The notes under the pieces: model-generated
What the model was told of the DNA's origin: nothing
What the model saw: only the letters and a program-made list of their open reading frames with translations
Database searches by the model: none
Position numbers and translations under genes: made by a program
Shown here: positions 4,683 to 61,820 of the stretch, one piece after another
How positions within the stretch are numbered: position 1 is the stretch's first letter
Layout of the letters: every line of letters begins with the position of its first letter
Virus record (IMG/VR): IMGVR_UViG_3300008110_007313
Direction: 5' to 3' (one strand)
Origin: a virus
Lineage: Duplodnaviria; Caudoviricetes
Length of the DNA stretch: 64,000 nucleotides

Positions 4683-4962
4683 CGCGAATCCTTACCACGT
4701 TGTGTGCTATAAACTCTGCTGGTCCAGATATTACTCGTGGATTCTGAGCTGTCAAATGTGCATTAGTGTCAATCATTTCGTATTTGATCACATAGTCGCC
4801 AGGTACTGCATTAACGGGAATCACTTCTTCTAGATACGACTGCACAAAATTAAAAGTGCGTTCAGTAAACAGTTCTCCTTGCACATACAATCGATAACGC
4901 GGAGGCGGCCCTGCCCAATCGCAAAACACATCATACTGTACCTGAACACTTTGTGGCTTCAT
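4672..4962 (-). CDS. hypothetical protein
   Basis: 96-aa ORF with a TAAATA motif 4 nt upstream. Confidence 0.65.
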   Translation of the reverse strand: MKPQSVQVQYDVFCDWAGPPPRYRLYVQGELFTERTFNFVQSYLEEVIPVNAVPGDYVIKYEMIDTNAHLTAQNPRVISGPAEFIAHNVVRIRDEI

Positions 4963-4966
4963 ATGG

Positions 4967-4972
4967 TATTTA
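4967..4972 (-). promoter_or_regulatory. T4-like late promoter core TAAATA
   Basis: Minus strand reads GCTAAATACCATATG; the ATG is the start of 4672..4962. Confidence 0.6.
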
Positions 4973-5620
4973 GCGGGATATTTGCATCAACCGCTGCTGA
5001 TAATACCGAAACTCTGTGCTGTTGAAATAGTCACAAAAATCTTGAGCACTACGTTTTCTGCACTGCGAATATGCCGCATGCGCTTTGGCAGCATAATCAT
5101 ACAAATTACTAAAGCCAAATGTTGCTGTCAGTTGCTGGTAAAAATTGCGGTCCAACACTGAATCAAACACAGTATCGCCATTGACAAAATTAAACAACGG
5201 TGTCTGACGCTGTTTGATATCTTGCATTGCATTATCACGAAGTAAAAATTTTGTTTTGATCTGATCAGGAGTGGTAGAATTCATGCCCAAGTTTATGTGA
5301 AAATAATGTGTAATAGGCAGCTGGTAATCAGCAAAAGTAATAAACAAAGTGGGATGATTTGTTAAGGACTGCCAGTCTTGGTAGTTGTGCGAAAGATTGA
5401 TGCCACCGTCCAGCATGTGACGATGACGCCATTCGTACTGCAACCAAGTGTTCCAGGTACGCTCTTTAGGGTACACTTGTTGTTGAATAAACAGTAGTTT
5501 ATCTTCGGGAGTTAGATAATTGTTAAACGGGTCTGTGTATTTTGGGTCTAAGAACAGTAACCAACGCAGATGATTGCCGCCAGCGCCTTCGGGAAAAATA
5601 ATATTACCGTGAAATGTCAT
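4970..5620 (-). CDS. hypothetical protein with sulfotransferase/P-loop-like N-terminus
   Basis: Likely start is ATG 5620 (MTFHGNIIFPEGAGGNHLRWLL). The longer ORF-track start overlaps the divergent gene. Confidence 0.55.
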   Translation of the reverse strand: MTFHGNIIFPEGAGGNHLRWLLFLDPKYTDPFNNYLTPEDKLLFIQQQVYPKERTWNTWLQYEWRHRHMLDGGINLSHNYQDWQSLTNHPTLFITFADYQLPITHYFHINLGMNSTTPDQIKTKFLLRDNAMQDIKQRQTPLFNFVNGDTVFDSVLDRNFYQQLTATFGFSNLYDYAAKAHAAYSQCRKRSAQDFCDYFNSTEFRYYQQRLMQISR

Positions 5621-5705
5621 ACGTTTACTTAATCTATAATTACACCCACTATTTCTTTGCTCTAAAGCAATAAATATTAGGATAATAATTATAAGGTGAG
5701 CAAAA

Positions 5706-6833
5706 ATGAAAAGAAAAATAGCCATGGGCCTAGCCAGCCTTGTGGTTGCAGCCGCTGCTACGGCACAGACCACTAATACCAGTACTGCCAGCACCACAGG
5801 CGGTACAACCACCAACAATACTACTTTGATCAATCAAGGTACCTACGACTCAAAAACATTGGTTGACACCAACAGCACGTCAAACAGCACCAGTACTGTG
5901 ACGTCAAACAGCAATACCAACAGCACGTCAACTAGTACCAGTGCTAGCACAGTTAATAGCACCAGTGCTAATACTAATACTAACACCAGTACCAGTGTGA
6001 ATACCAACAACAACGTTCAAAGTGGAACTGTTACTAACAACAATGTCAACACTGGAACAATGACGTATAATAACAACAACGTTAACTCAGGTACAATGAC
6101 CTACAACAACAACAATGTGAATACCAGTACCAGCAACAATACTAATACTAACCACAACATTAACTCAGGTACAATGACCTACAACAACAACAATGTCAGT
6201 ACCAGTACCGCTACAAACAACAACAACAATGTGAGTACCAGCACAGCCACTAACAACAACATCAACACTGGCGACATGACCAACCGTAATATTAACACCA
6301 GTACAAGTACCAGCAATAATGTAAACAACAACGTGAATACCAGTACTGCTGTGAACCAAAATGTGCAGACTGGCGACATGACCAACCGTAATATCAACAC
6401 TACCGAAATCACGCAACGTGTGATTCAGCCACCACCTACTGCTGTGGCACCTGCTATGCTGAGTGGCGGCAATGCTGACTTATGTTCAACTGGTAGCTCG
6501 GGTAGTGTGCAAACTCAAGTATTTGGTGTTAGTGGCGGTGGTACCGTACGTGACCTGAACTGCGAACGCTTGAAGTTATCTAAAACGTTATATGACATGG
6601 GCATGAAGGTAGCCGCTGTGGCAACTATGTGTCAGGATCGCAGAGTGTTTGATGCCATGATGGCTGCTGGCACACCTTGCCCATACGAAGGCAAAATTGG
6701 CGAGCAAGCTCGCGCTGAGTGGACTGCTAACCCAGACAAAATTCCCGCACCAGACAAGGTAAAACTAGATGAGAATTATAAGAAAATTGGCCTTGGCGCT
6801 TTACTTGGCGTTGTTGTCCATAAGTTATTCTAA
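5706..6833 (+). CDS. exported Asn/Thr-rich repeat protein with Cys-containing C-terminal domain and hydrophobic tail
   Basis: Signal peptide MKRKIAMGLASLVVAAAATA; N/T/S repeats; LCSTG...NCERLKLSK...TMCQD...TPCP domain; upstream TAAATA at 5671-5676. Confidence 0.75.
   Translation: MKRKIAMGLASLVVAAAATAQTTNTSTASTTGGTTTNNTTLINQGTYDSKTLVDTNSTSNSTSTVTSNSNTNSTSTSTSASTVNSTSANTNTNTSTSVNTNNNVQSGTVTNNNVNTGTMTYNNNNVNSGTMTYNNNNVNTSTSNNTNTNHNINSGTMTYNNNNVSTSTATNNNNNVSTSTATNNNINTGDMTNRNINTSTSTSNNVNNNVNTSTAVNQNVQTGDMTNRNINTTEITQRVIQPPPTAVAPAMLSGGNADLCSTGSSGSVQTQVFGVSGGGTVRDLNCERLKLSKTLYDMGMKVAAVATMCQDRRVFDAMMAAGTPCPYEGKIGEQARAEWTANPDKIPAPDKVKLDENYKKIGLGALLGVVVHKLF
6082..6196 (+). repeat. 37-bp exact direct repeat inside the Asn/Thr-rich gene
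   Basis: ttaactcaggtacaatgacctacaacaacaacaatgt at 6082-6118 and 6160-6196. A separate 26-bp repeat, actggcgacatgaccaaccgtaatat, lies at 6267-6292 and 6369-6394. Confidence 0.9.
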
Positions 6834-17500: not shown

Positions 17501-19850
17501 TGTTTCTCCAAAAAGAAACAGCAACTTCATAGGGAGTAGTGTGCTCAAACATTATGCTCAAGTGCGTACCATCGTCCAGTGTAGCCAGTGCATCATAATC
17601 TCCGTACTCGCTTTTTTCCCATTTGATAGGATAAGGTTGATCAAATGTTTCGGACACATTGTAAGTAGGATCTGTCTTGATCTTGCGCATGCCTGGGGGT
17701 TGCGTAGGATCAGCAGGATCGATATCAGTAACATCCAGCCCTGTGGCTTTGAGATCCTTGATAAACTTGTGTTCAGTTTCTTCATCGCCAAACGAAATAA
17801 CTGAACTTGGTGGTCCTGCGCCAAAGTCGTGCTTGCCCAGACCCTTCATGTTTGAAATATGCTGACCCAGTTTGTACCAGTCATACATGTCGCTGACATC
17901 AATTCGCACTGTGCCAGCAGGCATAGTAGGCGGCGTTTCAGGTCCCAGGGGTTGATTCAAATCTCTATACTTTCCCTGTCCTTGACTGGGCTGTGGCATG
18001 CGACCTTCGCGCAAGTTGGCAGTCTTCATCAGCAGTGCTGGACGACCTTGAGCATCAGTTTTCAACGACATTTTGTTGGCATTCTTGCCTGTAGCACCTG
18101 GACGAACATCGGGGCTAAGAGCCATCACAAAGCGTGGATCATTCTTTTCGGCATCAGTGGGAATGTAACCAGATGCTTCCGCAATGTCTTCGCGTTGATA
18201 CTGATTGCCCGTCCAAGGTTGTTGCTGTGGTTGTTGACGTTGTTGTTGACGTTGTTGTAGTTGCCAAACACGGCTTTGATTCTGTGCTCCGGGATCTCCT
18301 TGTTGAGCCCGTATGTAATTTTTAAATTCTTGATTGAGTTCTTCTTCAGCACCAGCACGAGTCACATTGTGTTTGAGTCTGTATAAGGTACGAGCAACGT
18401 TGAGTATCTGTATTGGATTTAGTTGCCCTTGTTGTTGAACCTGTGGCTGTTGATCTTGTGGCAAGTAGTCTTGTGCCTGTGCGGGGGACATAGCCACCGC
18501 CGCAGCCAAGGCAGCAGCAGCGCCGGCTCGACTCATAACGCCTTCGTCAATTTCTTGACGCATGAACAATTCTGGATGAGCATCAGCATAGTCACGCATG
18601 ACAATGCCGGCTATGGCATGCGCTTCGTTTTCATAATCGCTGCCGGTATCTCCGGCATCATCGGGTAGAGATTCACGTTGATTTTGAGCACAATGAGCTA
18701 ATTCGTGTGCAGTGGTCCGCAGGATGTCCAAGAGATGACGATTGCCCAGACTCACATGTAGCTCATGTGATTCGGGTTTGTACATTCCAAAACTCTTGTT
18801 TTGTTGACTCCATTCAGGATCACGATGCAGTTCTACTCGTGGCAGGCGTTGTATGCCTAATTTTTCAGCGGTGTCTTTGATAAAGTTTTGTACAATATCT
18901 TCATGGTCTTGGTCAGTTTCACTGAGGAATTCTTGAGTGTCTGGGCTCACGCCGTCCCAGGTACTTTGAGCTCCTGCATCACCAATGGCGCTGCCTTGAG
19001 CCATGCCGGTGTTATCTTCGTACATGCTTTCGCCGCCGCCATCGCCACCTCCGGCGTCCCCTTCGCTGCCAAATCCAAACCCAGGATACCAGTAACCGCC
19101 AAGTCCATAGCGCACTTTTTTCTTCTTTTTCTTGCGCTCTTGTAAACTGAGTTCAGCATCTCTAGCAGCGTTACGAGCGTCGATCAGTTTCTTGATATAG
19201 CCTTGATTGCGCAGAACTTTGAAAGCCAAGTTGTCAGACCCGTACTCGCCTTGTTGTTCGAGACCCGACTGTCTCATTGTTTTGATCTTTTTGTGCAGAT
19301 CTGTGATGCGTTGATAATCGTTGGATTTTACAGCATCATCTATCCTTGCTGCAAGATCTTCAACTTTACTGTGAACGCTGACATCATCTATTTCAGGTTT
19401 TCTGCGCTTGGGCACAGATACCCAGTTATTTTTTGACAAGCTGTAGATGCCCTGACTGTGATGTTCTTGATTGGGATCTTGTACATAGAGTTCAACATCG
19501 TACCCGCCTATTTTGATATTGTGCATGTCGTTGTACTGATACTTTTTAGCATCAAACAACTCGCGAAATACTTCACTACTGTCGGCTTCGGGTAAGTCTA
19601 CTACAAGATGTAGATCAATATCGCTGTTGGGGGTGTAGTTGTAGGCAGCATTGGATCCTGACACAGTGATGTCTTTGACATCAAGATCAGGTACGCCTAA
19701 AAATTCTTGGAAATCTGCTGCTATTTCCAGCAGTTTGCTTTTTACTTCAGAACGCAGGTGTTCGTTTTCGTCCCACAACCGGGGATTTAACCGGTTATGG
19801 AACTTTACTGAATCGCTGAGGCGGTAATTGTCTAACTCTGTGATATTCAT
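14568..19850 (-). CDS. 1760-aa multi-domain protein: polB-type nucleotidyltransferase, HExxH metallopeptidase-like, GNAT-like, amidoligase, C-terminal repeats
   Basis: SGSNAAYNYTPNSDIDLHLVVD; TAHELAH; GMEFEM...VEPDGSL...GLEFVSPP...STGLHINIS...KYTSIN...IEFRSPGG; five Trp-containing repeats at the end. Confidence 0.8.
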   Translation of the reverse strand: MNITELDNYRLSDSVKFHNRLNPRLWDENEHLRSEVKSKLLEIAADFQEFLGVPDLDVKDITVSGSNAAYNYTPNSDIDLHLVVDLPEADSSEVFRELFDAKKYQYNDMHNIKIGGYDVELYVQDPNQEHHSQGIYSLSKNNWVSVPKRRKPEIDDVSVHSKVEDLAARIDDAVKSNDYQRITDLHKKIKTMRQSGLEQQGEYGSDNLAFKVLRNQGYIKKLIDARNAARDAELSLQERKKKKKKVRYGLGGYWYPGFGFGSEGDAGGGDGGGESMYEDNTGMAQGSAIGDAGAQSTWDGVSPDTQEFLSETDQDHEDIVQNFIKDTAEKLGIQRLPRVELHRDPEWSQQNKSFGMYKPESHELHVSLGNRHLLDILRTTAHELAHCAQNQRESLPDDAGDTGSDYENEAHAIAGIVMRDYADAHPELFMRQEIDEGVMSRAGAAAALAAAVAMSPAQAQDYLPQDQQPQVQQQGQLNPIQILNVARTLYRLKHNVTRAGAEEELNQEFKNYIRAQQGDPGAQNQSRVWQLQQRQQQRQQPQQQPWTGNQYQREDIAEASGYIPTDAEKNDPRFVMALSPDVRPGATGKNANKMSLKTDAQGRPALLMKTANLREGRMPQPSQGQGKYRDLNQPLGPETPPTMPAGTVRIDVSDMYDWYKLGQHISNMKGLGKHDFGAGPPSSVISFGDEETEHKFIKDLKATGLDVTDIDPADPTQPPGMRKIKTDPTYNVSETFDQPYPIKWEKSEYGDYDALATLDDGTHLSIMFEHTTPYEVAVSFWRNNSQEVTGEGDAQRIFATVLAAIQQFLKQEQPANISFSAVKEDDPTGSRSKLYNKLVQRYAGTWGYQARSFDHDDKVEFELTKIRQNTDEDELVESLRQEFALLEDEFLGEIKMTGKNLRAEAAKTGAIAGMEFEMIVPNIEQDLEPEYEPDWDQDQRSRSFGDVRDFFYDGDYNSRRDADRLIEELDGEYQEWKQEQIAEAWERDGADYVRDYVANNDLFDRDEAMAQARDEIMDANPDLPPESEEFTELLSARLNEMETEFADTAFEDRGRIHDQAFEEFSDEQDEEYDERSFLDDKYQTMSDIQSNFDISWPHYYDINDGQDGEMDIDQVADDFSNSIGKPVNASRQYHGGRREAGHYVVEPDGSLEGDNPGDGGLEFVSPPMPIDEMISDLNKVKAWAKREGCYTNDSTGLHINISVPNYTLAKLDYVKLALLMGDEYVLELFGRSGNTYAKSAIGKIKTMLQRNPDIAPQVMDKMREHMEDIATKAIHSGTTDKYTSINTKTGYIEFRSPGGDWLDANFDKIENTLLRFTVALSAAIDPKAYRQEYLKKLYKLLEGSQTKGGPDVLQLFANYSAGELDKAALIRQVREKQLARNVEKGKVTGKMWWNVARPGYFASVEVVASSKEEAIEKGKQEYPDWRNARDMTATPLRPYQEPQTPEAAGPTLNGRPSNPNGRWIIIDRQDRETPVYRYAAADSNDAFSVLRQWIAANPGGEWMYAQDPTQRLGQPQAQQPAASTDQGNWGIWIINSNRFANQPGSYSRSETPPFYRFPTRAAAEQWIEQQRAERPNMRSDIEVREIEPAEPIPGSTLDLQRQRATANTSPDIDTLTPSGPGPWEVANRDNNQVYYNPPSSNPIEAESQSRTWLRQNGHNEADFEVRTREGVGGTDAAQGGIIDIGPDISPYNVPQTLTRPGQGQQTFTGEWQIVGPEGRVIYRFSGVGNNQGDANRVAMDWLRRNPQNMQAGVEVVPVMG

Positions 19851-19857
19851 AACAGAG

Positions 19858-19863
19858 TATTTA
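19858..19863 (-). promoter_or_regulatory. T4-like late promoter core TAAATA
   Basis: Minus strand reads GGTAAATACTCTGTTATG, 7 nt before the start of the 1760-aa gene. Confidence 0.6.
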
Positions 19864-19875: not shown

Positions 19876-20757
19876 TTAGGCTGCTTTCTTGCTAGAAGCC
19901 AGAACTTCTGTTTCTACAGCAGGTGTAGGCTCTGCAGCCAAGGCATGTGGGGTACCAGCGGCTGGTGCAACAGTGGGGTCTACAGCCTGTGGCATACTTT
20001 TTGGCAGTTGCCCGGCCTGTGCCATAGCGTGCAGATCTTGATAGAGCTTTTCGTGTGTGCCAAAATCAAAGGTGTATGTGCCCACGTGGCGCAACAGCAC
20101 ACGCTTGTCCACAAATACTTGGCCACCAATGTCGCGCCAGTTTTCACAGAATGTCCAGTCTTCTGAGTAGTAACGTCCTTCGCGAACTGCGGTGTCAAAG
20201 TAGGTTTTCATGTGTACGTTGAGTGCAGGGTCAAGACCAATGTCGTTGGTAAATGGCTTCACAGCAGGGTGAGCATTGAGTTTTTCAAAAACTTCGCGTT
20301 TCATCAACAAGAAGCCTGTGCCTGTTTTTGTAACTTCAATCAAGCCCGATGGATCATCTTCAGGAGCACCTGGGATGCCATTTACGCACCATTTAACAGG
20401 CAAGCTCTTCATTGGGTACAAGCCGCCCACAACATCTTTGTCATGATTCAGCAAGGCCAGTAAGTGCCAGGGCTCCCAGCCAATATCAGCATCAATGAAC
20501 ATCAGGTGTGTTGAGCCTTCGGTGTTCAAAAACTTGGCGGTGAGTGTGTTTCGAGCACGACTAATTAGACTTTCATTGGTCATTGTTTCCACAGTCCAAT
20601 CAATGCCCAGTTGTCGGCAAGTATTACCCCATTTGATAAAACTCATAAAGGTCTGCTCAGTGAGCTGGCCTCCATAACAAGGCATACAGATATGTACTCG
20701 AGTGGTACGCAGATAATCGAGGTTAACTTGAATTTGTTGTTGCTGTGATTCAGCCAT
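19876..20757 (-). CDS. glycosyltransferase-like protein (GT-A fold)
   Basis: CMPCYGG, ESLISRARN, THLMFIDADIGW (DxD), GTGFLLMKREVF and SEDWTFC motifs. Confidence 0.75.
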   Translation of the reverse strand: MAESQQQQIQVNLDYLRTTRVHICMPCYGGQLTEQTFMSFIKWGNTCRQLGIDWTVETMTNESLISRARNTLTAKFLNTEGSTHLMFIDADIGWEPWHLLALLNHDKDVVGGLYPMKSLPVKWCVNGIPGAPEDDPSGLIEVTKTGTGFLLMKREVFEKLNAHPAVKPFTNDIGLDPALNVHMKTYFDTAVREGRYYSEDWTFCENWRDIGGQVFVDKRVLLRHVGTYTFDFGTHEKLYQDLHAMAQAGQLPKSMPQAVDPTVAPAAGTPHALAAEPTPAVETEVLASSKKAA

Positions 20758-20811
20758 TGGGATCTCCAGTAAAATTGTAGCAATATTTAATGCTAGCGGC
20801 CAGCAGCGGCA

Positions 20812-22026
20812 TTATTTTAACACACCGGCCTGTTGTACAGATTGATATAAATTGGGTAAAGTAGTGCGCCAATCAAGAGATCTGCGTTGGTCCAATTGAT
20901 GCAACCGATCAATCCATTGATTGTTACCGTTGGCAGATTGCAAACTGCTCGATATTAACTGTGCTACAGCATCTGATTGAGAAGAAAATTCCCGCAGTAA
21001 TTGTTCTTTGAGTGCAAGACTGGCAGTGTCAATACCCAGTAGTCCTACTACCAATTGATAGGTATTGTGTATCTTGATTCTTTCTTGATAAGGTTGAGTA
21101 AACTTCACCCACCAATCTTGTGTTTGTTGAGCAAGATGTACATTGTGTATTCCCAGTGCAGTGGACATGACCACATGGTCAAATCCAAGTTCAATGACTT
21201 TTTGAATGTTTTCAGTTACAGTGTTCCATTTCAGTGGATACCGTATGTATTCAAACTGCGGTCCTGTGCCGTCTATACTAAAATACACAGTGACATGAGC
21301 AGCTTGTTTGAGCAATGCAATCATCTCATCTGACGGCATGCAACTGCCATTCATGTTGAAGCCCACATCAATTTGATTTAGTTTACCCAAATCAGACAGT
21401 TTTTGTAAAATTTTTACAGGGTCTTGACTCAGCACCGGCTCACCGCCGTTGAAATACACACGAACAATGTTTTCAAAGTTTATATGATCAATTATGTTGT
21501 TGTCGCGAGCAGTGGCAGCACTGCGACTGATAGGAAATGCAGTATCTGAAAATTTTTGATCTTCTGCTAACCAGGAACTACTGTGATAGTTGCTGCAAAT
21601 AATACATTTGGCATTGCAAATGGGCTCAACATTCCAGTCGAGATTTTGCAAACCTGGTTGTTGATATTGAGAATAAAATTCAATACTACTGATCCTTAAA
21701 CTGCGTCCAGTGTACTTTTCTTGATTCCAACATACTGAGCATTCTTTGCTGGCAATGCCGGCTTGATTTTCTTGTCTGAGTCGCAGCAAAAATGGATTAG
21801 TATCAAAGTTCACCTGATCATTAGAACAAGATTGGCCTTGAGCTGCACAACAGGGTGCAACCACGCTGGTGTCAGCATCACGCCGCTCCACGTACATGCT
21901 TTTGAATATTGCAGGACAGTAATAAGGATTATTTTTTTCTTCCAGCACAGTGAGCTCTTTGACTGAATCCTTGTGGGCGATCGCAATTGATTGATTGTTT
22001 GTACTTGTCACTCCATTTTTCATCAA
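20812..22026 (-). CDS. radical SAM protein with an N-terminal Cys cluster (true start possibly GTG 21948)
   Basis: CNAKCIIC (CxxxCxxC), YFNGGEP and FSIDG motifs; additional APCC...CSVCW cluster. Confidence 0.85.
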   Translation of the reverse strand: MMKNGVTSTNNQSIAIAHKDSVKELTVLEEKNNPYYCPAIFKSMYVERRDADTSVVAPCCAAQGQSCSNDQVNFDTNPFLLRLRQENQAGIASKECSVCWNQEKYTGRSLRISSIEFYSQYQQPGLQNLDWNVEPICNAKCIICSNYHSSSWLAEDQKFSDTAFPISRSAATARDNNIIDHINFENIVRVYFNGGEPVLSQDPVKILQKLSDLGKLNQIDVGFNMNGSCMPSDEMIALLKQAAHVTVYFSIDGTGPQFEYIRYPLKWNTVTENIQKVIELGFDHVVMSTALGIHNVHLAQQTQDWWVKFTQPYQERIKIHNTYQLVVGLLGIDTASLALKEQLLREFSSQSDAVAQLISSSLQSANGNNQWIDRLHQLDQRRSLDWRTTLPNLYQSVQQAGVLK

Positions 22027-24598: not shown

Positions 24599-24603
24599 GC
24601 CTG

Positions 24604-24609
24604 TATTTA
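24604..24609 (-). promoter_or_regulatory. T4-like late promoter core TAAATA
   Basis: Minus strand ACTAAATACAGGCATG; the identical 16-mer precedes the gene starting at 34208. Confidence 0.65.
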
Positions 24610-25581: not shown

Positions 25582-25587
25582 AGTGTA

Positions 25588-29856: not shown

Positions 29857-29885
29857 AATATTATTTACAAGCAGACTGTGATGTC

Positions 29886-34213: not shown

Positions 34214-34219
34214 TATTTA
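34214..34219 (-). promoter_or_regulatory. T4-like late promoter core TAAATA
   Basis: ACTAAATACAGGCATG, identical to the site at 24604-24609. Confidence 0.65.
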
Positions 34220-40329: not shown

Positions 40330-40333
40330 AATT

Positions 40334-43103: not shown

Positions 43104-43266
43104 GGTTGTATATTTACCACAACAGGACTCAAGCTGGATTTTGACATCACAGGGTCAACAGCCTAATACTTATGCTGAAAAACCAAAGAAATCTGTCCAC
43201 ATAATTCTCTGATTCACTGTACCGTAAATATCCTTGTCCAACTAACGGACACAAGGAGAAAACACT

Positions 43267-44004
43267 TTGAGTAGAAACCGCGCTGCGAAAGCACAAAACA
43301 AACGTATGGTACAGACACAAGAGAACACTATCAGCTTTAACCAAGCACCTAAAGCGGCACAGCGCCGCATAGACCTGATCCCTCGAACACGAAATCAGGA
43401 ACGCTTGGTGCTGGCTCTTTTGGACGCTGACCAACACATAGTTGTTACCACTGGTCCTGCTGGCACTGGCAAAACGTATCTAGCCATGCAAGCAGCAGTA
43501 AAAGCATTAAGAGAAGGAGATTGCGATCGCATAGTATTAACACGCCCAGCGGTTGGCGTAGAGGGAGAACAACATGGTTTCCTCCCGGGCAATTTAGTTG
43601 CTAAAATGGAACCTTGGACTCGTCCTTTGCTAGACGTCATGCGGGAATACTACCGCCCTCAGGACATTGTAGCCATGATAGAAGATCAGGTTGTGGAAAT
43701 TGCGCCTCTGGCATTCATGCGCGGCCGCACCTTTAAAAACTCGTGGATTATTGCCGACGAAATGCAAAATGCAACTCCGGCACAGGCCAAGATGTTAATG
43801 ACTCGCATTGGAACGAACTCTAAGATTGTGATCACAGGTGATGTTGAGCAAGCTGATCGTAACGCAGACGACAACGGCTTGATGGACCTGGTAACAAGAT
43901 TGCAATCTTTCCCAGTGAACGGTATCACGGTTTGCCCCATGGAAAACCGTGATGTTCAGCGACACAAGATCATAGGAGAAGTGTTACGACTCTATAGTAA
44001 ATAA
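43267..44004 (+). CDS. phoH: PhoH-family ATPase
   Basis: GPAGTGKT, GFLPG, EIAPLAFMRGRTF, DEMQN and GDVEQAD motifs; TTG start. Confidence 0.92.
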   Translation: MSRNRAAKAQNKRMVQTQENTISFNQAPKAAQRRIDLIPRTRNQERLVLALLDADQHIVVTTGPAGTGKTYLAMQAAVKALREGDCDRIVLTRPAVGVEGEQHGFLPGNLVAKMEPWTRPLLDVMREYYRPQDIVAMIEDQVVEIAPLAFMRGRTFKNSWIIADEMQNATPAQAKMLMTRIGTNSKIVITGDVEQADRNADDNGLMDLVTRLQSFPVNGITVCPMENRDVQRHKIIGEVLRLYSK

Positions 44005-44009
44005 GGGCC

Positions 44010-44672
44010 ATGCTGGCCCAACTTGCCCACCCTAATTTAATCGTAGTTCACTACAGACCATATCAGGGTGGCAAGTTTTTCATCAACTGCCTTGCTCATC
44101 ACTACAAAGTAATGCCTCAGCTGGATACCAGCTGTTACCTGTCTGGTCAAGATTTCAAAATACAACAAATTCACAACAGTTTGCCCCCGCCTGAACACCT
44201 ACGCAAGTGGGAAAAATTCGAGTTGGGTTGCAGATCTTTTTGGGGCGGTAAGTTGACTGAATTGTTGCAACGTACACAACAACCTAACTCAGTGTCAACT
44301 GAATTGTTGAGTCAATACCGTTGTTTCATAGTCAATCACATGACCAATCCAGAACGCCTTGATCTAATTGATCTGAATCTGCCAATGGCCAGACACATTG
44401 TACTCACCAACGCTGATGAGTTTTGCAAGACGTCAATTGAGAAAAAAGCACCTCTGGACTATGATCCCAAGTTGTCAACAGGATCATTTGAAAGACACAT
44501 GTTTACAAACCGCAATGCATTTTTTCTAGATGTAGATTCTGCATATTCTAACTCAACACAATTGATTACGCAACTGCATCGGTGTTTGATCTGGCTGGGC
44601 GTGGATACTGAACTAGATCCAACAGTATCTCAGTTTATTGATCAATATCGTTGGCTTCATGGCCTACAATAG
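44010..44672 (+). CDS. hypothetical protein with sulfotransferase/P-loop-like N-terminus
   Basis: IVVHYRPYQGGKFFINCL resembles three other ORFs in the window. Confidence 0.55.
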   Translation: MLAQLAHPNLIVVHYRPYQGGKFFINCLAHHYKVMPQLDTSCYLSGQDFKIQQIHNSLPPPEHLRKWEKFELGCRSFWGGKLTELLQRTQQPNSVSTELLSQYRCFIVNHMTNPERLDLIDLNLPMARHIVLTNADEFCKTSIEKKAPLDYDPKLSTGSFERHMFTNRNAFFLDVDSAYSNSTQLITQLHRCLIWLGVDTELDPTVSQFIDQYRWLHGLQ

Positions 44673-45270
44673 TTTGATATGCTTCGCGCCAGTTTTTGAC
44701 CACTGGATAGTTGCAGCAATGGTGCATGTTGTGTCCGTGTTCCATGAGCATGCTGTTTAGACCCATGCTATAGCCCACGTCAGCGTTTTCAGGCTTGTCT
44801 TCAATCCACCAGCAACCTGAACCTGCGTATGGCTCCAGTGCTTCGTTTTTATCAGCACCTGTATCCAAGCACACAATTGATTCAAACACTGTTTCACCAA
44901 ACATCTTGCGCAGATTCATTTCTCGCAGTCGTTGTGCATTGATATCCCGGCTTAGACTTGTGATACAGTGAAACACGTAGCCATGCTCTTCGTGCAGACG
45001 CTTGACATAGTACATGGCATCACGCAAGGGTGGCAAAAACCCAATGGCCGCCGATTCATTGAACATTCTAATCAGCTTTTTGCCCTGCTCTCGAGTAATG
45101 CCATAGCGTTCACCGATGTCATAGACAAATGCAGACCCGGGCTGTTGTTCATGCCCGTGTTCTTCCATCCAGATTGCAAAGGCATACTCCCAGTTCAACA
45201 GCACGCCGTCGGCGTCAACTAGGATTGTTTGCGTTGGGTTGTACTTCAGATTCTGATTTGGTTTCTTCAT
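44635..45270 (-). CDS. HAD-superfamily 5'(3')-deoxyribonucleotidase-like protein
   Basis: ILVDADGVLL (DxD motif I), ITS (motif II), WIEDKPEN (motif IV). Confidence 0.8.
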   Translation of the reverse strand: MKKPNQNLKYNPTQTILVDADGVLLNWEYAFAIWMEEHGHEQQPGSAFVYDIGERYGITREQGKKLIRMFNESAAIGFLPPLRDAMYYVKRLHEEHGYVFHCITSLSRDINAQRLREMNLRKMFGETVFESIVCLDTGADKNEALEPYAGSGCWWIEDKPENADVGYSMGLNSMLMEHGHNMHHCCNYPVVKNWREAYQTIVGHEANDIDQ

Positions 45271-45532
45271 TTTTTACTATCTCATAACCGTTTTCGTCAA
45301 ACAGTCGCTTGATGATACTTTCGTAGTGTTGCATGTAGTATTCTACAATGCGGTGGAAATTTTTGGGTACTTGAACACCGCCCATGTGACATTTTTCTAC
45401 CTGGAGTGTTTTAAAGTCCAAGATCACATTGGCAGTTTGCAGGTCTCTTGTTTTTAGCCGTTTGGACACTTGCATGGCTTCGTCTAGTCGGCCATCCGCT
45501 TTGCGGTAATAGGTTAGAATAAAATATCTCAT
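45215..45532 (-). CDS. hypothetical protein
   Basis: 105 aa, directly downstream of a sigma70 promoter. Confidence 0.7.
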   Translation of the reverse strand: MRYFILTYYRKADGRLDEAMQVSKRLKTRDLQTANVILDFKTLQVEKCHMGGVQVPKNFHRIVEYYMQHYESIIKRLFDENGYEIVKNEETKSESEVQPNANNPS

Positions 45533-45538
45533 AACGTT

Positions 45539-45567
45539 ATTGTAACAATTTTCTAATAAAATGTCAA
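45539..45567 (-). promoter_or_regulatory. sigma70-type promoter, 6 nt from the ATG
   Basis: Minus strand TTGACA-17 nt-TACAAT-aacgtt-ATG. Confidence 0.75.
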
Positions 45568-48790: not shown

Positions 48791-48993
48791 CTTCCTTTTT
48801 TGGGATTGCTAACTTGTTTTTGGTACTGCTGATTGACTTGATCGGTTTTCTTACTGATCACACGATTCATGTCATCGACTAGGTCTCCACGTGCATTGAC
48901 TTTCATGTTGCCTACGGCACGTACATTTTCATTTTTTAGGCGTAGACTGGCCATGTCTACTGTTTTACCCATTGCTGTTTTGTGAGTTTTCAT
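48787..48993 (-). CDS. small hypothetical protein
   Basis: SD AAGGAG and TAAATA at 49012-49017; AVGNMKVNARGD motif. Confidence 0.65.
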   Translation of the reverse strand: MKTHKTAMGKTVDMASLRLKNENVRAVGNMKVNARGDLVDDMNRVISKKTDQVNQQYQKQVSNPKKGS

Positions 48994-49014
48994 AGTAATC
49001 TCCTTGGTAATTAT

Positions 49015-49533
49015 TTAACGCAGAAATTCGTTGGGGTTTAAATCATAGTGTAAACTGTCAATTCTGTGTACTCGTAGTTTATACAACACATAACTGGCCA
49101 CACTAGAACCACGTCCTACACCCCAGATCAATTCATGTTCAGTCATAACATCTACCAAATATTTGAGATAGCGTAGTAGATTAAACAAGTTACGTTCTTG
49201 AAATAGCATGAGTTCTTGTCCACAGCGTTGCAGTTCAGCATCAGTTTGGCATAAACTCAGCACATGTTCGGCAATGTCAAGATCTTTATAGGACTGAGGC
49301 ATGTACCAATTGGCCTGGCAACGATGATCCCACTCTTGCTGGCTCTGTTGCTGACACATTTCATCGTAGCGTATAAAAGTTGGCACATTATCTAGAATCA
49401 ACGCGGCTGTTTCTAGATCAATGCTGTTGTCTACCAGCAAGTGATCCAAGGTGGCAAAGTCATGTCCTTGCATGTACAAGTGCACAACATCGTTCTCACC
49501 AAAGATCATTTGTCCAAATTTGTCAGTTTTCAT
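49015..49533 (-). CDS. stand-alone fragment of DNA polymerase III alpha (DnaE) palm region
   Basis: EL.LF...YLKYLVD...WGVGRGSSVASYVLY.L.VH.IDSL.YDL...EFLR parallels DnaE GRGSAAGSLVAY.LGIT.IDP...FERFL. Confidence 0.75.
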   Translation of the reverse strand: MKTDKFGQMIFGENDVVHLYMQGHDFATLDHLLVDNSIDLETAALILDNVPTFIRYDEMCQQQSQQEWDHRCQANWYMPQSYKDLDIAEHVLSLCQTDAELQRCGQELMLFQERNLFNLLRYLKYLVDVMTEHELIWGVGRGSSVASYVLYKLRVHRIDSLHYDLNPNEFLR

Positions 49534-50119
49534 TTTTTGGGAAATTTGCAAATACTACAGTGTTGGCAGTGTGCTTGACCTCATCGGGCCATTCAAGTCC
49601 GTATTCTTGCCAGCCAGTGGTTGTAACTTTAACAACGTTTTGAGACACAGTTTCTAATTCAATGTTTTCGTGTTGAGTGTTGGACAATGTCCACCAGCCA
49701 TCGTTGACAAACGGACCCAGAGTATCTTCTTCATTGTGCAGATACCAGACCTGATCGCCCAATGTGCTTTGAATGTTGAGGTCTGTGATTATCATGCGAC
49801 CTTCCATGATAGCATTGAGCTTGCAGTATAACATTATACCAATGAGTTGGTCAACTGGTTCTTCGGGCAAGGTGGTCACATTTATACCCAATAGACTCAT
49901 CATTTCTGCTTTTTCTTCATGCACCTGATTGATGAATACTGTGTTTTCCAACTCGCTCCAAATAAAACACTTGAGGCGATTCATTGCAATATTGGTTTGT
50001 TCAGCATCAGTAGTTTTGGTAACCAAATCTAAACTAACTGAGTATTGATTGAGTTGCAATGAATCTTCATAGTAAATGCCCGCCATGAAGTCTATGTCGT
50101 ACTGAAGTCTTACGTTCAT
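49523..50119 (-). CDS. hypothetical protein
   Basis: 198-aa ORF coupled on both sides. Confidence 0.7.
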   Translation of the reverse strand: MNVRLQYDIDFMAGIYYEDSLQLNQYSVSLDLVTKTTDAEQTNIAMNRLKCFIWSELENTVFINQVHEEKAEMMSLLGINVTTLPEEPVDQLIGIMLYCKLNAIMEGRMIITDLNIQSTLGDQVWYLHNEEDTLGPFVNDGWWTLSNTQHENIELETVSQNVVKVTTTGWQEYGLEWPDEVKHTANTVVFANFPKNEN

Positions 50120-50349
50120 TTGATGTTGATTTTGTCTGAATGAGCCATGGCACCAGATTTTTCTGATGCTTCGCGCAGTCGTTGTTGATACTTGCTTTGG
50201 TAGCTTTCCAAAGCCATTCGAATTTGATTGCAGAGATGTCCGTTGCCGGTTTGCGCGGCTATAGACAGTTTTCGGTTTAGTTCGCTGATCTTGTCAGTGA
50301 GCTGTTCTTCGCTCAGTGAATCAAGGCTGCCAATCAAAGGATGTTCCAT
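50116..50349 (-). CDS. small hypothetical protein
   Basis: 77 aa, directly downstream of a sigma70 promoter. Confidence 0.7.
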   Translation of the reverse strand: MEHPLIGSLDSLSEEQLTDKISELNRKLSIAAQTGNGHLCNQIRMALESYQSKYQQRLREASEKSGAMAHSDKINIK

Positions 50350-50355
50350 AGAGTA

Positions 50356-50385
50356 ATTTTACTACAGAACACCCAGCAATGTCAA
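50356..50385 (-). promoter_or_regulatory. sigma70-type promoter, 6 nt from the ATG
   Basis: Minus strand TTGACA-18 nt-TAAAAT-tactct-ATG. Confidence 0.65.
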
Positions 50386-55803: not shown

Positions 55804-58437
55804 TTAGTTGAGAAATACCCAGGCAGAGCCATTCCAACCTTTGAATCGACCACCGGTTGTGTTCAAATAAATGGCTCCAGTAACTGGACTAGCAGGATCA
55901 GCAGCAGAGGCAGGCACTACCAAAAATGGTCCTGCGGCCGTGATAACTGACCCAGTAATATTACCCGTTGCACTGATCACTCCAGGTGTGTTAATGTTAC
56001 CGCTGTTGGTATTACCAGTGACATTCAAAGTGGATGTTACATTGCCGCTAAGGCTCAGTGTGGCACCTGTAATAGCTGCTGTAGAGTTAACGTTACCACC
56101 ATTGACGTTGGCAGTAGCAATAACGTTGGTGCCTGTTACATTTCCTGTGACATTAACAACACTGATAATATTGCCACTAAGGCTTAGTGTGGCACCTGTA
56201 ATAGCTGCAAGTGAATTGATGTTGCCGCCAATGATGTTACCTGTTGAACTGACCAGTCCAACACTGTTGACATTGGCGCCAGTGATGTTACTGGTGACGT
56301 TGAGTGCAGTGATAACGTTTCCGCTGAGACTGATAGCCACAGTGTTGACGTTGCCTGAAGTTAAATTTCCTGTGGCAGTAATTAAACCACCAGTGACTAT
56401 GTTGCCTCCAATAACGTTACCAGTTGAGGTGACATTAGCTGTGGCTACAAGGTTTGCTCCACGTACATTTCCTGTGGCACTGACCAAACCACCTGTGTTA
56501 ATATTGCCGCCAGTGATGTTTCCAACCACGGTGGCCAACCCAGGAGAACTCAAATTGCCGCCAGCAATATTGCTGCTAACATTAAGATCACTGATCACGT
56601 TACCAATCAAGCTCAAGCTACCGTTGGTTACCAGGTTACCGCCAATCACGTTACCAGTGGCACTGAGTATACCACCAGTTCTCACGTTTCCGGCATCCAC
56701 GTTGCCAGTGACGCTGACGCTGGCACCTTCTAATCCGCCAATGATCAAGTTGCCGTATGCACTGATTGCAGTAACCACATCATTGGTCATGGTTACTTGT
56801 GTGGCTGCTAGAAATTTACCAGCTGAATTGTCGTAGCCAATAAATGCTGACAGCTCACTGCCAGAGTAATACCACAGTTGTTCGCCTCGATCTTTGCCGT
56901 CGTTGCTGGTCAAAGGTGTGTTGTTGGGTCCGCGGCCCAAACTTATAATTGGATCCTCTACTGCCAGTGTGGTCACGTTGTTGTAGACCAAGTCGCCATC
57001 TACAGTAAGGTTGCCAGTGATTATGGCGCTGCCTGACACTGCAAGACTACCATTGGTGACTAAATTGCCACCGGTGATATTACCAGTAGCACTGACCACC
57101 CCACCAGTGTTGATGTTTCCACCTGTGATATTGCCAGACGCAGTTACAATGCCAGTGCTTACATTGTTGCCTGTGATGTTGCCTGTGGCAGTTATGATAC
57201 CACTAGAAATCACATTGCTGCCTTGCACATTGGCTGCACTTGTGATGTTGCCCGTAGCGGTAACTATGCCTGTGGCCACAATGATTGCAGTATTCAAATT
57301 GAGAGCTTCAAGATTTCCAGCAACGTTTGCTGTGCTAGTCACTAGCAATTGGCCTACATTGGCCAGGCCAGTACCTTGAATGTTGCCAACACTGATGTTG
57401 GCGTTGGCAGTTATGTTATTACCGGTGATATTTCCTGTAGCATTAACAGTAATACTGGTAACTCTATTGGTAGCGTCAACGTTGGCAGCACCTACAGTAC
57501 CACCAGGTACACTGACATCAGTTCCGGTGAGTACGCCTCCAGCGGTGATACCACCTGTGGCTGTAATCAATCCACCAGTTACAATGTTGCCACCAACAAC
57601 GTTGCCCACGGCTGAAATAGCAGCCAAAGCAGAAACGTTGTTTGAACTGACATCGCCGTTGCCGCCTAGGGCATTACTGACATTTAAAAAGTTTAAAGTG
57701 CCCACAGTTTGCAAACTGGAGTTTACTACGTTTGCGCTCAAAGTTGACCCAACTATCAGAGCTGCATTGCCCACTGAAGTAATGCCTGATAATCCTGATC
57801 CGTTGCCGGTAAAAAACTGTGCTGTAATATTACCTGCTGCGGTAATGTCGCCTCCGGCACTGACCTGTCCAGTGGTCAACAAATTACCGCCTGTGATGTT
57901 GCCCGTGGCACTGACTTGTCCACCGGTGTTAAAATTGGATGCTTGAGCATTGCCCGATACACTGATCAGGCCTGAAGTAACAAGATTGCCACCTACTATG
58001 TTACCTGACGCACTCAAATTGGCCAATACGCCCACAGAAGTCAGTGTACTGTTGGTCACGTTTGCACTCAGCGTATTACCCACAAGAGCGTTGGCAGGAG
58101 CCACAGATGTAACTCCAGTAAGTTGGCTACCATTACCTAAAAACAATCCTGCACTAACTATGTTACCAGTGACACTGACAATGTTTGCTGCCACAGTGCC
58201 TAGTATTGTAGCACCTGTGCCCGACACTACAACAACGTTGGGAACACCAGTACTGCTCATGTTGATTACACTGTCATCAACAATGCTGATGTTTGAAGAT
58301 CCGTTGCTAATACCGCTTACACCACCAATGTTGAATAATTCTGTAAAGTTTTCGTTGGTTTTGATAAAAGCTGTGCGTAGCGGATCGCCATCGCCGTCAT
58401 TAGCGACATTGCCTACGTTGATTACTTGCTGTGTCAT
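55804..58437 (-). CDS. tail fibre/spike-like protein with many ATGNITGGN repeats
   Basis: N-terminal INVGNVANDGDGDPLRTAFIK.NENF.EL (T4 gp9/gp10-like baseplate attachment motif); dozens of short G/N/T repeats. Confidence 0.75.
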   Translation of the reverse strand: MTQQVINVGNVANDGDGDPLRTAFIKTNENFTELFNIGGVSGISNGSSNISIVDDSVINMSSTGVPNVVVVSGTGATILGTVAANIVSVTGNIVSAGLFLGNGSQLTGVTSVAPANALVGNTLSANVTNSTLTSVGVLANLSASGNIVGGNLVTSGLISVSGNAQASNFNTGGQVSATGNITGGNLLTTGQVSAGGDITAAGNITAQFFTGNGSGLSGITSVGNAALIVGSTLSANVVNSSLQTVGTLNFLNVSNALGGNGDVSSNNVSALAAISAVGNVVGGNIVTGGLITATGGITAGGVLTGTDVSVPGGTVGAANVDATNRVTSITVNATGNITGNNITANANISVGNIQGTGLANVGQLLVTSTANVAGNLEALNLNTAIIVATGIVTATGNITSAANVQGSNVISSGIITATGNITGNNVSTGIVTASGNITGGNINTGGVVSATGNITGGNLVTNGSLAVSGSAIITGNLTVDGDLVYNNVTTLAVEDPIISLGRGPNNTPLTSNDGKDRGEQLWYYSGSELSAFIGYDNSAGKFLAATQVTMTNDVVTAISAYGNLIIGGLEGASVSVTGNVDAGNVRTGGILSATGNVIGGNLVTNGSLSLIGNVISDLNVSSNIAGGNLSSPGLATVVGNITGGNINTGGLVSATGNVRGANLVATANVTSTGNVIGGNIVTGGLITATGNLTSGNVNTVAISLSGNVITALNVTSNITGANVNSVGLVSSTGNIIGGNINSLAAITGATLSLSGNIISVVNVTGNVTGTNVIATANVNGGNVNSTAAITGATLSLSGNVTSTLNVTGNTNSGNINTPGVISATGNITGSVITAAGPFLVVPASAADPASPVTGAIYLNTTGGRFKGWNGSAWVFLN

Positions 58438-58457
58438 AAATCGGAATCCTTGTGAAG

Positions 58458-58508
58458 TATTTAGCGTATCAACAATGCTGTGTCGAACAGTTGATTTCTG
58501 GCTAAATA
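58458..58508. promoter_or_regulatory. back-to-back late promoter cores (TAAATA on each strand)
   Basis: tattta at 58458-58463 serves the minus-strand gene; taaata at 58503-58508 serves the plus-strand tail fibre. Confidence 0.6.
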
Positions 58509-58527
58509 TGGTGAGTTGGAGTGATCA

Positions 58528-60588
58528 ATGTCATATATTATCAATAATAGTCGCGGCAACATTGTTGCTGTTGTTCCCGATGGTACCGTAAACCAAGGAG
58601 CGACCAGTCTGAGTTTGATTGGGCAAAACGTAACAAATTACGGTACTGACCAAAACGAAAATCTAGTATTCTTGCTAGAAAATTTTGCCTCGCCTTCGGC
58701 ACCAAATCAGCCCATCCTAGGGCAACTTTGGTACAAAAGCGACGAAGATTTAATTTATTCCTACAGCACAGCCAATACCTGGCAAGCCTTGGTCAACGAA
58801 GCCTATGTGCAGGCACAAAAGATCAGTCCTATTTTTACAGGAGTACCACAGGCGCCTACTGCACCTGCTGGCACAGCTAACACACAGATAGCTACTACTG
58901 CTTTTGTAACCAACAGCCCGCAGTTTGCAGGCGCCCCAACTGCTCCAACTGCGACACTTGCAACATCGAATACTCAGATTGCAACCACAGAGTTTGTAAA
59001 AAATGTGGCCAACAACCTGGGCACTATGTCCCAACAAAACTTTAACTCTGTGGCCATCACTGGAGGTACCATTACTGGACTGTCTGCGCCCTTGCCAGTG
59101 TTGTCTGGGGGTACAGGAGCTCAAGATGCTATCAACGCTAGAATCAATCTTGGACTGGGCTCTATAGCCACACAAAATGCCAACAGTGTTGCTATCACTG
59201 GCGGCTCTGCCACAGGACTCACAACACTGTCATTGTCTAATCCAACTTCAGGTGCTGTTTTCAGCACTGGCGGATCGCTGAGTGCGGTGAGCACATTGCC
59301 TATTAGTCTAGGGGGCACAGGTGCCAGTGATGCTGCCAACGCTAGAATCAACCTTGGTCTAGGTTCAGGTGCGGTAACCAACATTGGTACCATTGCAACA
59401 CAAAATGCCAACAGTGTTGCTATCACTGGCGGTACAATAACAGGTATTTCTGATTTGGCCGTGGCCGACGGAGGCACAGGTGCTAGTGATGCTGCCAATG
59501 CTAGAACCAATCTAGGAGCCGCTGCTCTGGGCAACAACAGTGATATCACTTCTATCACAGGACTGACCACTCCCTTGGCACCCTTGTACGGCGGCACAGG
59601 TGTGTCAGGACTCACGCCCAACGCTTTGGTTGTAGGCAATGCCTCATCCAGCGTAAAAAGCATACTGCCAGGAAATGCAGGTAATGTGTTGATCAGCACA
59701 GGGTCGCAGTGGATTTCTCAGGTATTCCCTGACGCTGGAGGTACCGTGACCAGCATAGAATTTATAGGTGGCAATGGTATTCAAATCACAGGTATCAATC
59801 CTGTGACCAGCGCAAGTACTATAACAATTAACAACGCAGGTATTACACGCATCCAAGGACCTAACATTGCTCTCACATCCACAGGCGTGGAATTTGTGGG
59901 CAACGGCGTGAGTCAAAGTGGCAACGTATTTACATTTAGTAGCACTGGTGCTCAAGGTCCCATTGGTCCAACAGGCCCAGCAGGTCCGCAAGGTGCAGAG
60001 GGCGCTACCGGGCCACGGGGTGCCACAGGACCACAGGGCTTGCAAGGCGAACGTGGAATTCAAGGGGCGCAAGGTCTCACCGGTGCCACAGGTCCTGCAG
60101 GTCCTAGTTATACCTTGCCCACAGCATCATCTAGCACACTAGGCGGGGTTAGAATTGACGGAACCACAATTACCATTTCTGGATCAGTTATTTCTGCCAA
60201 CATGCCAACTGCTACAGTATCGACACTGGGCGCTGTTCGTCCAGATGGTACTACAATTAAAATCAGTTCAGGGGTTATTTCAGCTCCTACTGCTACAGGA
60301 TATACTATCGTTTTTGCCACAGCTCAAAACTGTGTGGGATTTTCAAACAGCTTTGAATGGAACAATTCTACAAACTATTTTGATGTGTTTCCGCCAGCCG
60401 GGTTTAATATGACTCAATTGCAGGGATTCATGGCCAGCATGAGCAAAATATTCTTTGCAGGTAATGTCAACCTTGACGATTCAATGAGAACGGAATGGGC
60501 TGTGCAGGCAGATAGAATTCGAGTATGGGTTCAAAATACTGAACAGCGAGATACACCGGCGGTTAACTACATAGCTTTTTGGAGATAA
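58528..60588 (+). CDS. tail fibre protein with collagen-like segment
   Basis: [15 protein letters not shown] x2; [10 protein letters not shown] and GGTGA.DA.NAR.NLG x3; collagen Gly-X-Y run. Confidence 0.8.
59947..60108 (+). repeat. collagen-like (Gly-X-Y)18
   Basis: [54 protein letters not shown]. Confidence 0.9.
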
Positions 60589-60592
60589 TTTA

Positions 60593-60952
60593 ATGTATTA
60601 TATTTGCGTAGAAAATGACCGTGTAACCGGTGTACTAAACTATGAACCCAACGTTCCGTCTTCGGTCACAGTTGTAGTGATATCAGACGAAGATCATGCC
60701 AAACTTGATCAAAGAACCCATTACTTTGACATACCCACATCAAGTATACAGCCTTACCCCCAGAGCGAACTTGACAAACTGGCTGCTAGAAACGCCAGCC
60801 TAGAACATCAGAAATTTTTGAACAATACTGACTGGAAAGTCATGCGCCACATAAGAGAAAAGGCCCTGGGCATACCCACAAGCCTTAGTAATGCAGAATA
60901 CTTAGATCTTGAACTAGAGCGTGAACGTCGCGCCGCTGCAATCACACACTGA
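60593..60952 (+). CDS. putative tail fibre assembly chaperone
   Basis: Directly follows the fibre gene; [15 protein letters not shown]...LELERER motif typical of such chaperones. Confidence 0.6.
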
Positions 60953-61262
60953 AGCTAGAACCGCATCCACAGGTGCTTTGTGCCTGTGGATTGTCAATCA
61001 CAAAGCTGGATCCCATGTCCGATTCGTCCCAGCGAATATTGGCATTTTGTAAGTACTGCATGCTCATAGCGTCTACCAACACAGTAACATCGTCGTAGGC
61101 AAAATCAAAATCGTCTTCGTTTTTGGCTTCGTCTAGAGTGAAGCCATATTGGAATCCTGAACACCCACCACCTTGCACAAACACACGTAGTTTTGCATTG
61201 GGGTTGTTCTCTTCTGCCAAGATGTCTTTCAACTTGGTAACGGCACTCGTGTCTAATTTCAT
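60942..61262 (-). CDS. A-type Fe-S cluster carrier (ErpA/IscA/HesB family)
   Basis: [17 protein letters not shown] and [14 protein letters not shown] motifs. Confidence 0.92.
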
Positions 61263-61810
61263 TATAGTCTTTCGTTACAAACGTCCCAGTCAATGATCTT
61301 CCAGATATTGTCTAAGTAACGTTCTTTGTCTGATTGATAATCCAGGGCCCAGGCGTGTTCCCACCAGTCTACTAGCACACAGATGTCGGTGCGCACAGCA
61401 TGATTGGCAATGGTCTTGATATCCCCGCCTGTGCTCAAGTAAACCCAACCTGATCCTTGGATCTTCATTGCGGCCTGTTTGAATTCTTCTTTGAAATCTT
61501 CCCAGGTTTTGAATTTTTCTTCTATCAACGCGAGTACTGCACCACGCGGTCTGTTGGCGCCTTTGGGAGCCCGAAGCTGAGGGAAAAACTTATTGTGTAA
61601 AAAACTGCCAGCACGATTAAAATCCGCATTGCCTTCTCCTGCATTGTAGCGTTTGGCATAGCCCTTGGCCAAATGCTCAAAATGATAGTCTATGGTTTCC
61701 TTGCTCATTACGGGTTCAAGATCTTTGACACCATAAGGTAAAGGGGTAGTTTCCAGTTTTGCCGGACGAGTGCTTGCTTCTACAAGATTGATGTGGTCAC
61801 GTAGTTCCAT
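61262..61810 (-). CDS. sod: Fe/Mn superoxide dismutase with an N-terminal extension
   Basis: LPYG..DLEP.MS.ETIDYH, FLHNKFF, GSGWVYL and DWWEHAW (metal ligands apparently retained). Confidence 0.88.
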
Positions 61811-61814
61811 GTTG

Positions 61815-61820
61815 TATTTA
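61815..61820 (-). promoter_or_regulatory. T4-like late promoter core TAAATA
   Basis: ATAAATACAACATG, 4 nt before the SOD start. Confidence 0.6.

Follow-up and report, generated by a model that had tools for sequence, protein, structure and literature searches.

The question addressed here is why the hexamer TAAATA lies a few nucleotides (nt) before many start codons in a 64,000-nt stretch of DNA from the IMG/VR virus record IMGVR_UViG_3300008110_007313. This stretch, called the window below, belongs to an uncultured lake-water giant phage with many relatives. It has a guanine-plus-cytosine (GC) content of 45%, is about 90% coding and carries its genes mainly on the minus strand. TAAATA corresponds to the core of the T4-type late promoter. 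We consider it likely that the boxes are gp55-type late promoters fused to the ATG, yielding leaderless or near-leaderless mRNAs, and that this is a general mode of expression in the clade to which the phage belongs.

A site was called fused when TAAATA was followed by a spacer of 4-8 nt, counted from box to ATG, and then by the ATG. A preliminary description of the window had listed nine sites of the form TAAATA-N4-7-ATG; all nine were recovered at the reported coordinate and spacer, and each ATG is the first start codon of its own open reading frame (ORF). It had also held that the spacers leave no room for a Shine-Dalgarno (SD) sequence, and indeed a GGAG-like sequence fits in none of the nine. 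The identical 16-mer that it had noticed at 24598 and 34208 is present at both sites. A tenth fused site had been overlooked (TAAATA 43998-44003, plus strand, 6-nt spacer, ATG 44010). The ten predicted fused late promoters are as follows.

4960-4972, minus strand: 4-nt spacer, 96-amino-acid (aa) gene 4672-4962; no SD
19848-19863, minus strand: 7-nt spacer, 1760-aa gene 14568-19850; orthologues keep the box at 4-8 nt in 61 of 65
24596-24609, minus strand: 5-nt spacer, 889-aa gene 21929-24598; orthologues keep the box at 4-7 nt in 62 of 72, with freely drifting spacer sequence
25579-25594, minus strand: 7-nt spacer, 57-aa gene 25408-25581; orthologues keep the 7-nt spacer in 52 of 63, some with TAAGTA
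29854-29867, minus strand: 5-nt spacer, 176-aa gene 29326-29856
34206-34219, minus strand: 5-nt spacer, 170-aa gene 33696-34208; orthologues have a box at 5 nt (15) or no box (27)
40327-40340, minus strand: 5-nt spacer, 391-aa gene 39154-40329
43101-43116, minus strand: 7-nt spacer, 197-aa virion structural protein gene 42510-43103 (phrog_12928)
43998-44012, plus strand: 6-nt spacer, 220-aa gene 44010-44672
61808-61820, minus strand: 4-nt spacer, 182-aa gene 61262-61810

Ten fused sites among 162 first ATGs (ORFs of at least 57 codons) compare with 0.18 expected (Poisson p = 7e-15), and 14 permuted hexamers gave 0-3 sites each at the same placement. The total of 28 TAAATA in the window is no over-representation (28.6 in shuffles), yet placement is far from random, with about 22 of the 28 boxes lying at most 77 nt upstream of a plausible same-strand gene start. 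No SD sequence was found at any of the ten fused sites.

The distances were then counted in relatives, represented by 80 related IMG/VR loci of about 22 kilobases (kb) each (L001-L080) and by one whole 343-kb genome (G003). In both, the TAAATA-to-ATG distance is bimodal, with a sharp peak at 4-8 nt (mode 5) and a broad one at 16-30 nt. Of the 891 boxes counted in the 80 loci, 232 (26%) are followed at 4-8 nt by an ATG opening an ORF of 60 codons or more (24, 93, 48, 50 and 17 at spacers of 4, 5, 6, 7 and 8 nt); unrelated permutations of the hexamer reach 2-5% at this placement. The 195 unique fused sites of the 80 loci stem from a handful of orthologous genes. The whole-genome histogram of G003 holds 29 boxes at 4-8 nt (16 of them at 5 nt) and about 40 at 13-32 nt; restricted to the first ATGs of ORFs, 27 fused sites were found where 0.96 were expected (p = 1e-29). 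The distances are thus not flat against an AT-matched background, the 4-8 nt peak standing far above permuted hexamers in the window, in the 80 loci and in G003, as the preliminary description had anticipated.

Such a peak could in principle arise from TAA stop codons and from the AT-rich junctions of closely packed genes. In the window, four to six of the ten sites do have a TAA, in or overlapping the box, that ends an upstream ORF (for example at 4970, 34217 and 61818). In the relatives, however, the TAA of the box serves as the upstream stop at 17% of fused sites only, with a further 6% through an overlapping second TAA, and on this count the idea was rejected. The permuted TAA-containing hexamers TAATAA and ATTAAA give no peak, the ATA half of the box is invariant, and 32 fused sites have no upstream ORF end nearby. 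This explanation is almost certainly wrong.

The two peaks differ in how their starts are equipped. In the relatives, SD motifs occur at 0.5% of fused sites against 78% of distal sites; distal sites have the SD at its usual distance from the ATG, whereas box and SD are a variable 6 to 20 nt apart. Start codons at fused sites are ATG in 258 cases, GTG in 7 and TTG in 5, next to 4 CTG and 2 ACG, which are not start codons; SD-led starts are ATG, GTG and TTG in 329, 28 and 20 cases (13% GTG or TTG; Fisher p = 3e-4 against fused sites). GTG and TTG at fused sites are no commoner than non-start codons, so ATG is used almost exclusively. A pyrimidine directly precedes the ATG at 86% of fused and 67% of distal sites, in line with the pyrimidine/purine preference common at transcription start sites. 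Folding energy of the first 40 nt gave no clear separation (-2.7 kcal/mol for fused against -3.2 for leadered genes, p = 0.02), both kinds of gene start being weakly folded relative to gene interiors. A bias of second codons (Asn/Lys against Ala/Ser) was seen, is confounded by orthologue redundancy, and was not used as evidence.

In T4, late transcription depends on the sigma factor gp55, the co-activator gp33 and the sliding clamp gp45. A gp55-like sigma gene (phrog_234) was found in all five near-complete relatives (E about 1e-24). The G003 protein (L086:1441-2340, minus strand) has 299 aa against 185 aa in T4 and matches the gp55 chain of PDB 7D7C (E = 2.7e-5). The pocket residues N13, R57, F86, Y97 and T99 of gp55 are kept in it, and L54 and H95 are replaced by Y and F. 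Its first helix and a region-2-like core align to T4 gp55, and about 160 aa of unknown function are inserted between them. Upstream of the box (-20 to -4), base frequencies vary little at fused and distal sites alike, and no conserved -35 element is seen. The two bases before TAAATA are biased towards A, G and C and almost never T; the T4 8-mer is not kept, and the 6-nt core served as the search box. Among the one-mismatch variants, only TAAGTA clearly exceeds background (11% against 1-4%). The boxes precede virion genes, as expected of a T4-type late promoter, and would be active late. The earlier proposal that TAAATA is a late promoter is supported by the sigma gene, by boxes with SD leaders before tail sheath, baseplate and tail-fibre genes, and by the T4 geometry.

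That geometry also predicts where transcription would begin. The T4 late box TATAAATA spans -13 to -6 (PMC1524935); in the electron cryo-microscopy structure, the adenines flipped by gp55 are those at -12, -9 and -8 (PMC7892883). TAAATA would therefore span -11 to -6, and a 5-nt spacer, the observed mode, puts +1 on the A of the ATG. The preliminary description had many transcripts starting within about 2 nt of the AUG. The T4 geometry supports this for the shorter spacers; those of 7-8 nt may leave a leader of up to 3 nt.

The fusion proved wider than the preliminary description had held, since host-type promoters are fused to ATGs in the same way. Three lie in the window.

45530-45567, minus strand: host-type promoter, TTGACA, 17 nt, TACAAT, 6 nt, ATG of 105-aa gene 45215-45532
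50347-50385, minus strand: host-type promoter, TTGACA, 18 nt, TAAAAT, 6 nt, ATG of 77-aa gene 50116-50349
63959-63996, minus strand: host-type promoter, TTGACT, 17 nt, TATAAT preceded by TGC, 6 nt, ATG of 130-aa gene 63569-63961

Across the clade, 24 unique TTGAC-N17-19-TAnnnT sites lie 5-7 nt before an ATG, with a mode of 6, against one in the reversed sequence used as control, and an extended TG is frequent among them. Since the sigma-70 hexamer spans -12 to -7, a mode of 6 again places +1 on the A of the ATG. The one-base offset between the modes, 5 and 6, matches the prediction from the published geometries of the two promoter types. Presumed early genes thus look leaderless too, and leaderless initiation would not be a late-only trick. 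Because these presumed early promoters are fused, we infer that the unmodified host ribosome accepts mRNAs with a 5'-terminal AUG.

These promoters also bear on the possibility that TAAATA-N5-ATG is a translation signal on polycistronic RNA, such as an A/U-rich enhancer of SD-independent initiation, and no promoter at all. The box is A/U-rich, lies directly 5' of the start codon and stands in the place of an SD, as such a signal would. In front of sheath, baseplate and fibre genes, however, the same hexamer precedes a normal SD by 6-20 nt, a position in which it could have no start-proximal enhancer role. A translation signal does not explain why complete TTGAC/TATAAT promoters share the fusion with the expected one-base shift, nor why TAAATA and TAAGTA are enriched and other A/U-rich hexamers are not, and the gp55-type sigma encoded by the relatives counts against it as well. 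We regard it as very improbable.

The proposed mechanism is as follows. TAAATA would act as a -10-like late-promoter element, read by host RNA polymerase carrying the phage gp55-type sigma. In about one late promoter out of two, 4-8 nt (mode 5) separate the box from the ATG; there, transcription would start on the A of the ATG or at most about 3 nt before it, and ribosomes would recognise the 5'-terminal AUG and not SD pairing. The remaining late promoters would give ordinary SD-containing leaders of about 12-25 nt. The sigma-70-like promoters of these genomes would be fused likewise.

Conservation among orthologues gives a further view of the fused sites. For three window genes the box is kept at 4-8 nt (62 of 72, 52 of 63 and 61 of 65 orthologues), while spacer sequence and length drift, and some orthologues have TAAGTA where others have TAAATA. 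The 57-aa gene 25408-25581 (minus strand) begins MAKI and is present in 63 of the 80 loci, with the 7-nt spacer in 52 of the 63; a conserved A-C-Y triplet (Y, pyrimidine) before its ATG hints at a 3-nt leader. Orthologues of gene 33696-34208 (minus strand) fall into two groups: 15 have a box at 5 nt and no SD, and 27 lack a box in the 30 nt before the ATG. In most of the box-less cases inspected, a GGAG-type (AGGAG) SD stands before the same conserved ATG. Judged from these sequences, the alternation marks the ATG as the real start and suggests that fused box and SD are interchangeable ways of getting this gene translated. The switch between fused and SD-led start in the relatives amounts to a natural experiment.

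In the window, TAAGTA takes the same position at three places, two of them candidate fused promoters.

5618-5631, minus strand: candidate fused promoter, TAAGTA, 5-nt spacer, ATG 5620 (216-aa ORF)
62034-62049, minus strand: candidate fused promoter, TAAGTA, 7-nt spacer, ATG 62036 (72-aa ORF)
10802-10814, plus strand: TAAGTA 4-7 nt before an ATG

The orthologues are also relevant to another explanation, under which the boxes are real late promoters that mainly feed downstream genes and the first gene is made from longer read-through transcripts. Gene packing is tight: at 111 of the 195 unique fused sites (about 57%) an upstream ORF ends at most 60 nt before the box, and at 44 more the upstream stop overlaps it. 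Read-through transcripts over these ATGs probably exist. A promoter feeding downstream genes nevertheless has no reason to hold a spacing of 4-8 nt (mode 5) across orthologues with diverged spacers. Translation from a long transcript would be poor with an SD in 0.5% of fused genes, and the exclusivity of ATG and the alternation of box and SD before gene 34208 fit a 5'-terminal AUG better than read-through. Taken as a full account, read-through is unlikely.

Several points weigh against leaderless late mRNAs as the general explanation. At the 57% of fused sites with a close upstream ORF end, the ATG may still be translated from read-through transcripts. The position of +1 is carried over from the geometry of T4 and E. 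coli by way of a sigma with only about 35% identity (74 residues), whose gene was seen in the relatives and not in the window itself. A convincing gp45 clamp was not detected: phrog_223 gave no match in four of five relatives and one weak match in the fifth (E = 0.005); a divergent clamp may be present. With spacers of 7-8 nt, +1 would fall on a pyrimidine by the T4 rule, and there is a conserved A 3 nt upstream of the ATG; the mRNAs from these sites may therefore have a leader of 3 nt. Fused sites in the 80 loci reflect conservation and not independent recurrence; the independent counts are those of the window and of G003.

The leadered late promoters of the window are listed next; each TAAATA is separated from its ATG by a longer leader with an SD-like sequence.

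5671-5708, plus strand: leadered late promoter, 29 nt with AAGG, ATG 5706
9797-9821, plus strand: leadered late promoter, 16 nt with AAGGA, ATG 9819
11523-11571, plus strand: leadered late promoter, 40 nt with GGAG, ATG 11569
20755-20789, minus strand: leadered late promoter, 26 nt with GGAG, ATG 20757
35866-35892, minus strand: leadered late promoter, 18 nt with AAGGA, ATG 35868
48991-49017, minus strand: leadered late promoter, 18 nt with AAGGAG, ATG 48993
58435-58463, minus strand: leadered late promoter, 20 nt with AAGGA, ATG 58437 (877-aa gene)
58503-58530, plus strand: leadered late promoter, 19 nt with GGAG, ATG 58528 (tail-fibre-like collagen-repeat gene)

Four of these boxes (11523, 20784, 49012 and 58458) had been described before as distal sites with SD-like sequences. 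All four are real and have an SD; the start belonging to 11523 is probably ATG 11569 and not GTG 11542. At 58435-58530 two late promoters stand back to back and diverge, 40 nt apart, with SD leaders on both sides. Leadered boxes with an SD stand before genes for tail sheath, baseplate wedge and tail fibres; the genes behind fused boxes encode some virion structural proteins, a radical-SAM enzyme and many proteins without known function. The recognisable high-copy tail genes (sheath, baseplate wedge, fibres) are SD-led both in G003 (L088-L105) and in the window. The split between SD-led and fused genes may reflect a division by expression level.

A bolder version can be stated, in which leaderless initiation is the default mode of a widespread aquatic phage group across all temporal classes and late genes are split into two tunable translation regimes; we hold it to be doubtful. 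If it were true, high-copy tail and baseplate proteins would be made from SD-led mRNAs and lower-copy or packaged proteins from leaderless ones, and phage factors that act on the ribosome, or the 160-aa insertion of the sigma, might tip the balance between the regimes. For annotation, gene callers that expect an SD will misplace fused starts. Promoter strength and translation initiation are merged at these sites into one 14-nt element.

The window was placed as follows. Megablast with the 1760-aa gene gave no match among cultured phages. The ClpA-like ATPase (26216-28489) and the virion structural protein (42510-43103) have only distant relatives in cultured phages, at about 40% identity, all of them in jumbo myoviruses: PA5oct, the Rak2 group, Atu_ph07, Phosso and a Vibrio phage. 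In IMG/VR a large uncultured clade was found whose ClpA is 66-79% identical to that of the window and which includes near-complete genomes of 320-350 kb; a pattern search there gave no relative of the 391-aa protein (gene 39154-40329). Identity with the freshwater phages encoding ribosomal protein bS21 of Chen et al. 2022, which have 31-34% GC and predicted Bacteroidetes hosts (PMC9723584), was considered and rejected because the clade has 45-47% GC, strong SDs and TTGAC/TATAAT promoters. GCTAnAAT-like -10 boxes hint weakly at an alphaproteobacterial host.

T4-type late promoters and leaderless mRNAs are both textbook knowledge; no paper was found that describes a gp55-type promoter fused to the start codon, a layout used here by dozens of genes in a genome and kept across a large uncultured clade. 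Literature searches on leaderless mRNAs in the context of gp55, T4-like phages, late promoters or jumbo phages turned up no work connecting them to gp55-type promoters. Thermus phages phiYS40 and P23-45 have leaderless middle and late transcripts. The lambda cI mRNA made from PRM is leaderless (PMC10491246), and mycobacteria have many leaderless genes (PMC4633059). The fused sites resemble classical leaderless mRNAs in having a -10 element at a fixed short distance from the ATG, a predicted 5'-terminal AUG, no SD and a requirement for AUG. They differ in that the classical cases use a housekeeping-type sigma, whereas here the promoter is of the gp55 late type and leaderless and SD-led genes occur within one temporal class.

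Like T4 late promoters, those of the clade consist of an A/T-rich -10-like box without a -35 element, lie before virion genes and are accompanied by a gp55 homologue in the relatives. Unlike them, they keep only the 6-nt core, the positions of T-13 and A-12 of T4 being variable; about half of the boxes are fused to the ATG, and the sigma carries the insertion of about 160 aa. In T4 itself, 32 TATAAATA boxes were found near ATGs, none closer than 13 nt and with a mode of 28. Aeromonas phage Aeh1 has the shortened box CTAAATA, with C instead of A before TAAATA, as do several sites here, but its late promoters are not reported as fused to start codons (PMC1524935). The jumbo phages CBB and GAP32, from the same broad jumbo-myovirus supergroup as the clade, share the T4-like late motif: ATAAATA lies upstream of structural genes, and a gp55-like gene is present, with gp33 and gp45 not detected (PMC5259590). 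Compared by description only, they differ in that the paper mentions neither short spacing nor a leaderless reading (PMC5259590). The CBB and PA5oct papers give ATAAATA or TATAATA motifs and do not note the spacing.

In PA5oct, Atu_ph07, Phosso and Vibrio phage 2.275.O the fused pattern was no commoner than in the reversed control. A link of the layout to phage-encoded bS21 was considered and rejected, since bS21 is present in four of four relatives and in HTVC008M and also in these four phages without the layout. The matches lie above the Pfam cut-off in G001-G004 (for example L140 and L141), in HTVC008M and in the four layout-less phages, and T4 has no bS21.

Pelagibacter phage HTVC008M, a cultured T4-like pelagimyophage of another family (147 kb, 33% GC), does share the fused layout with the clade. 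Twelve TAAATA lie exactly 5 nt before ORF-opening ATGs in its genome, against 0-2 at neighbouring distances, and the pattern count on the forward strand is 22 against 8 in the control. A scan of the genome showed no fused host-type promoters, and no paper was found that describes the fused layout in this phage. HTVC008M grows on Pelagibacter, and as a cultured phage with the same layout it makes the proposal of late promoters fused to start codons testable.

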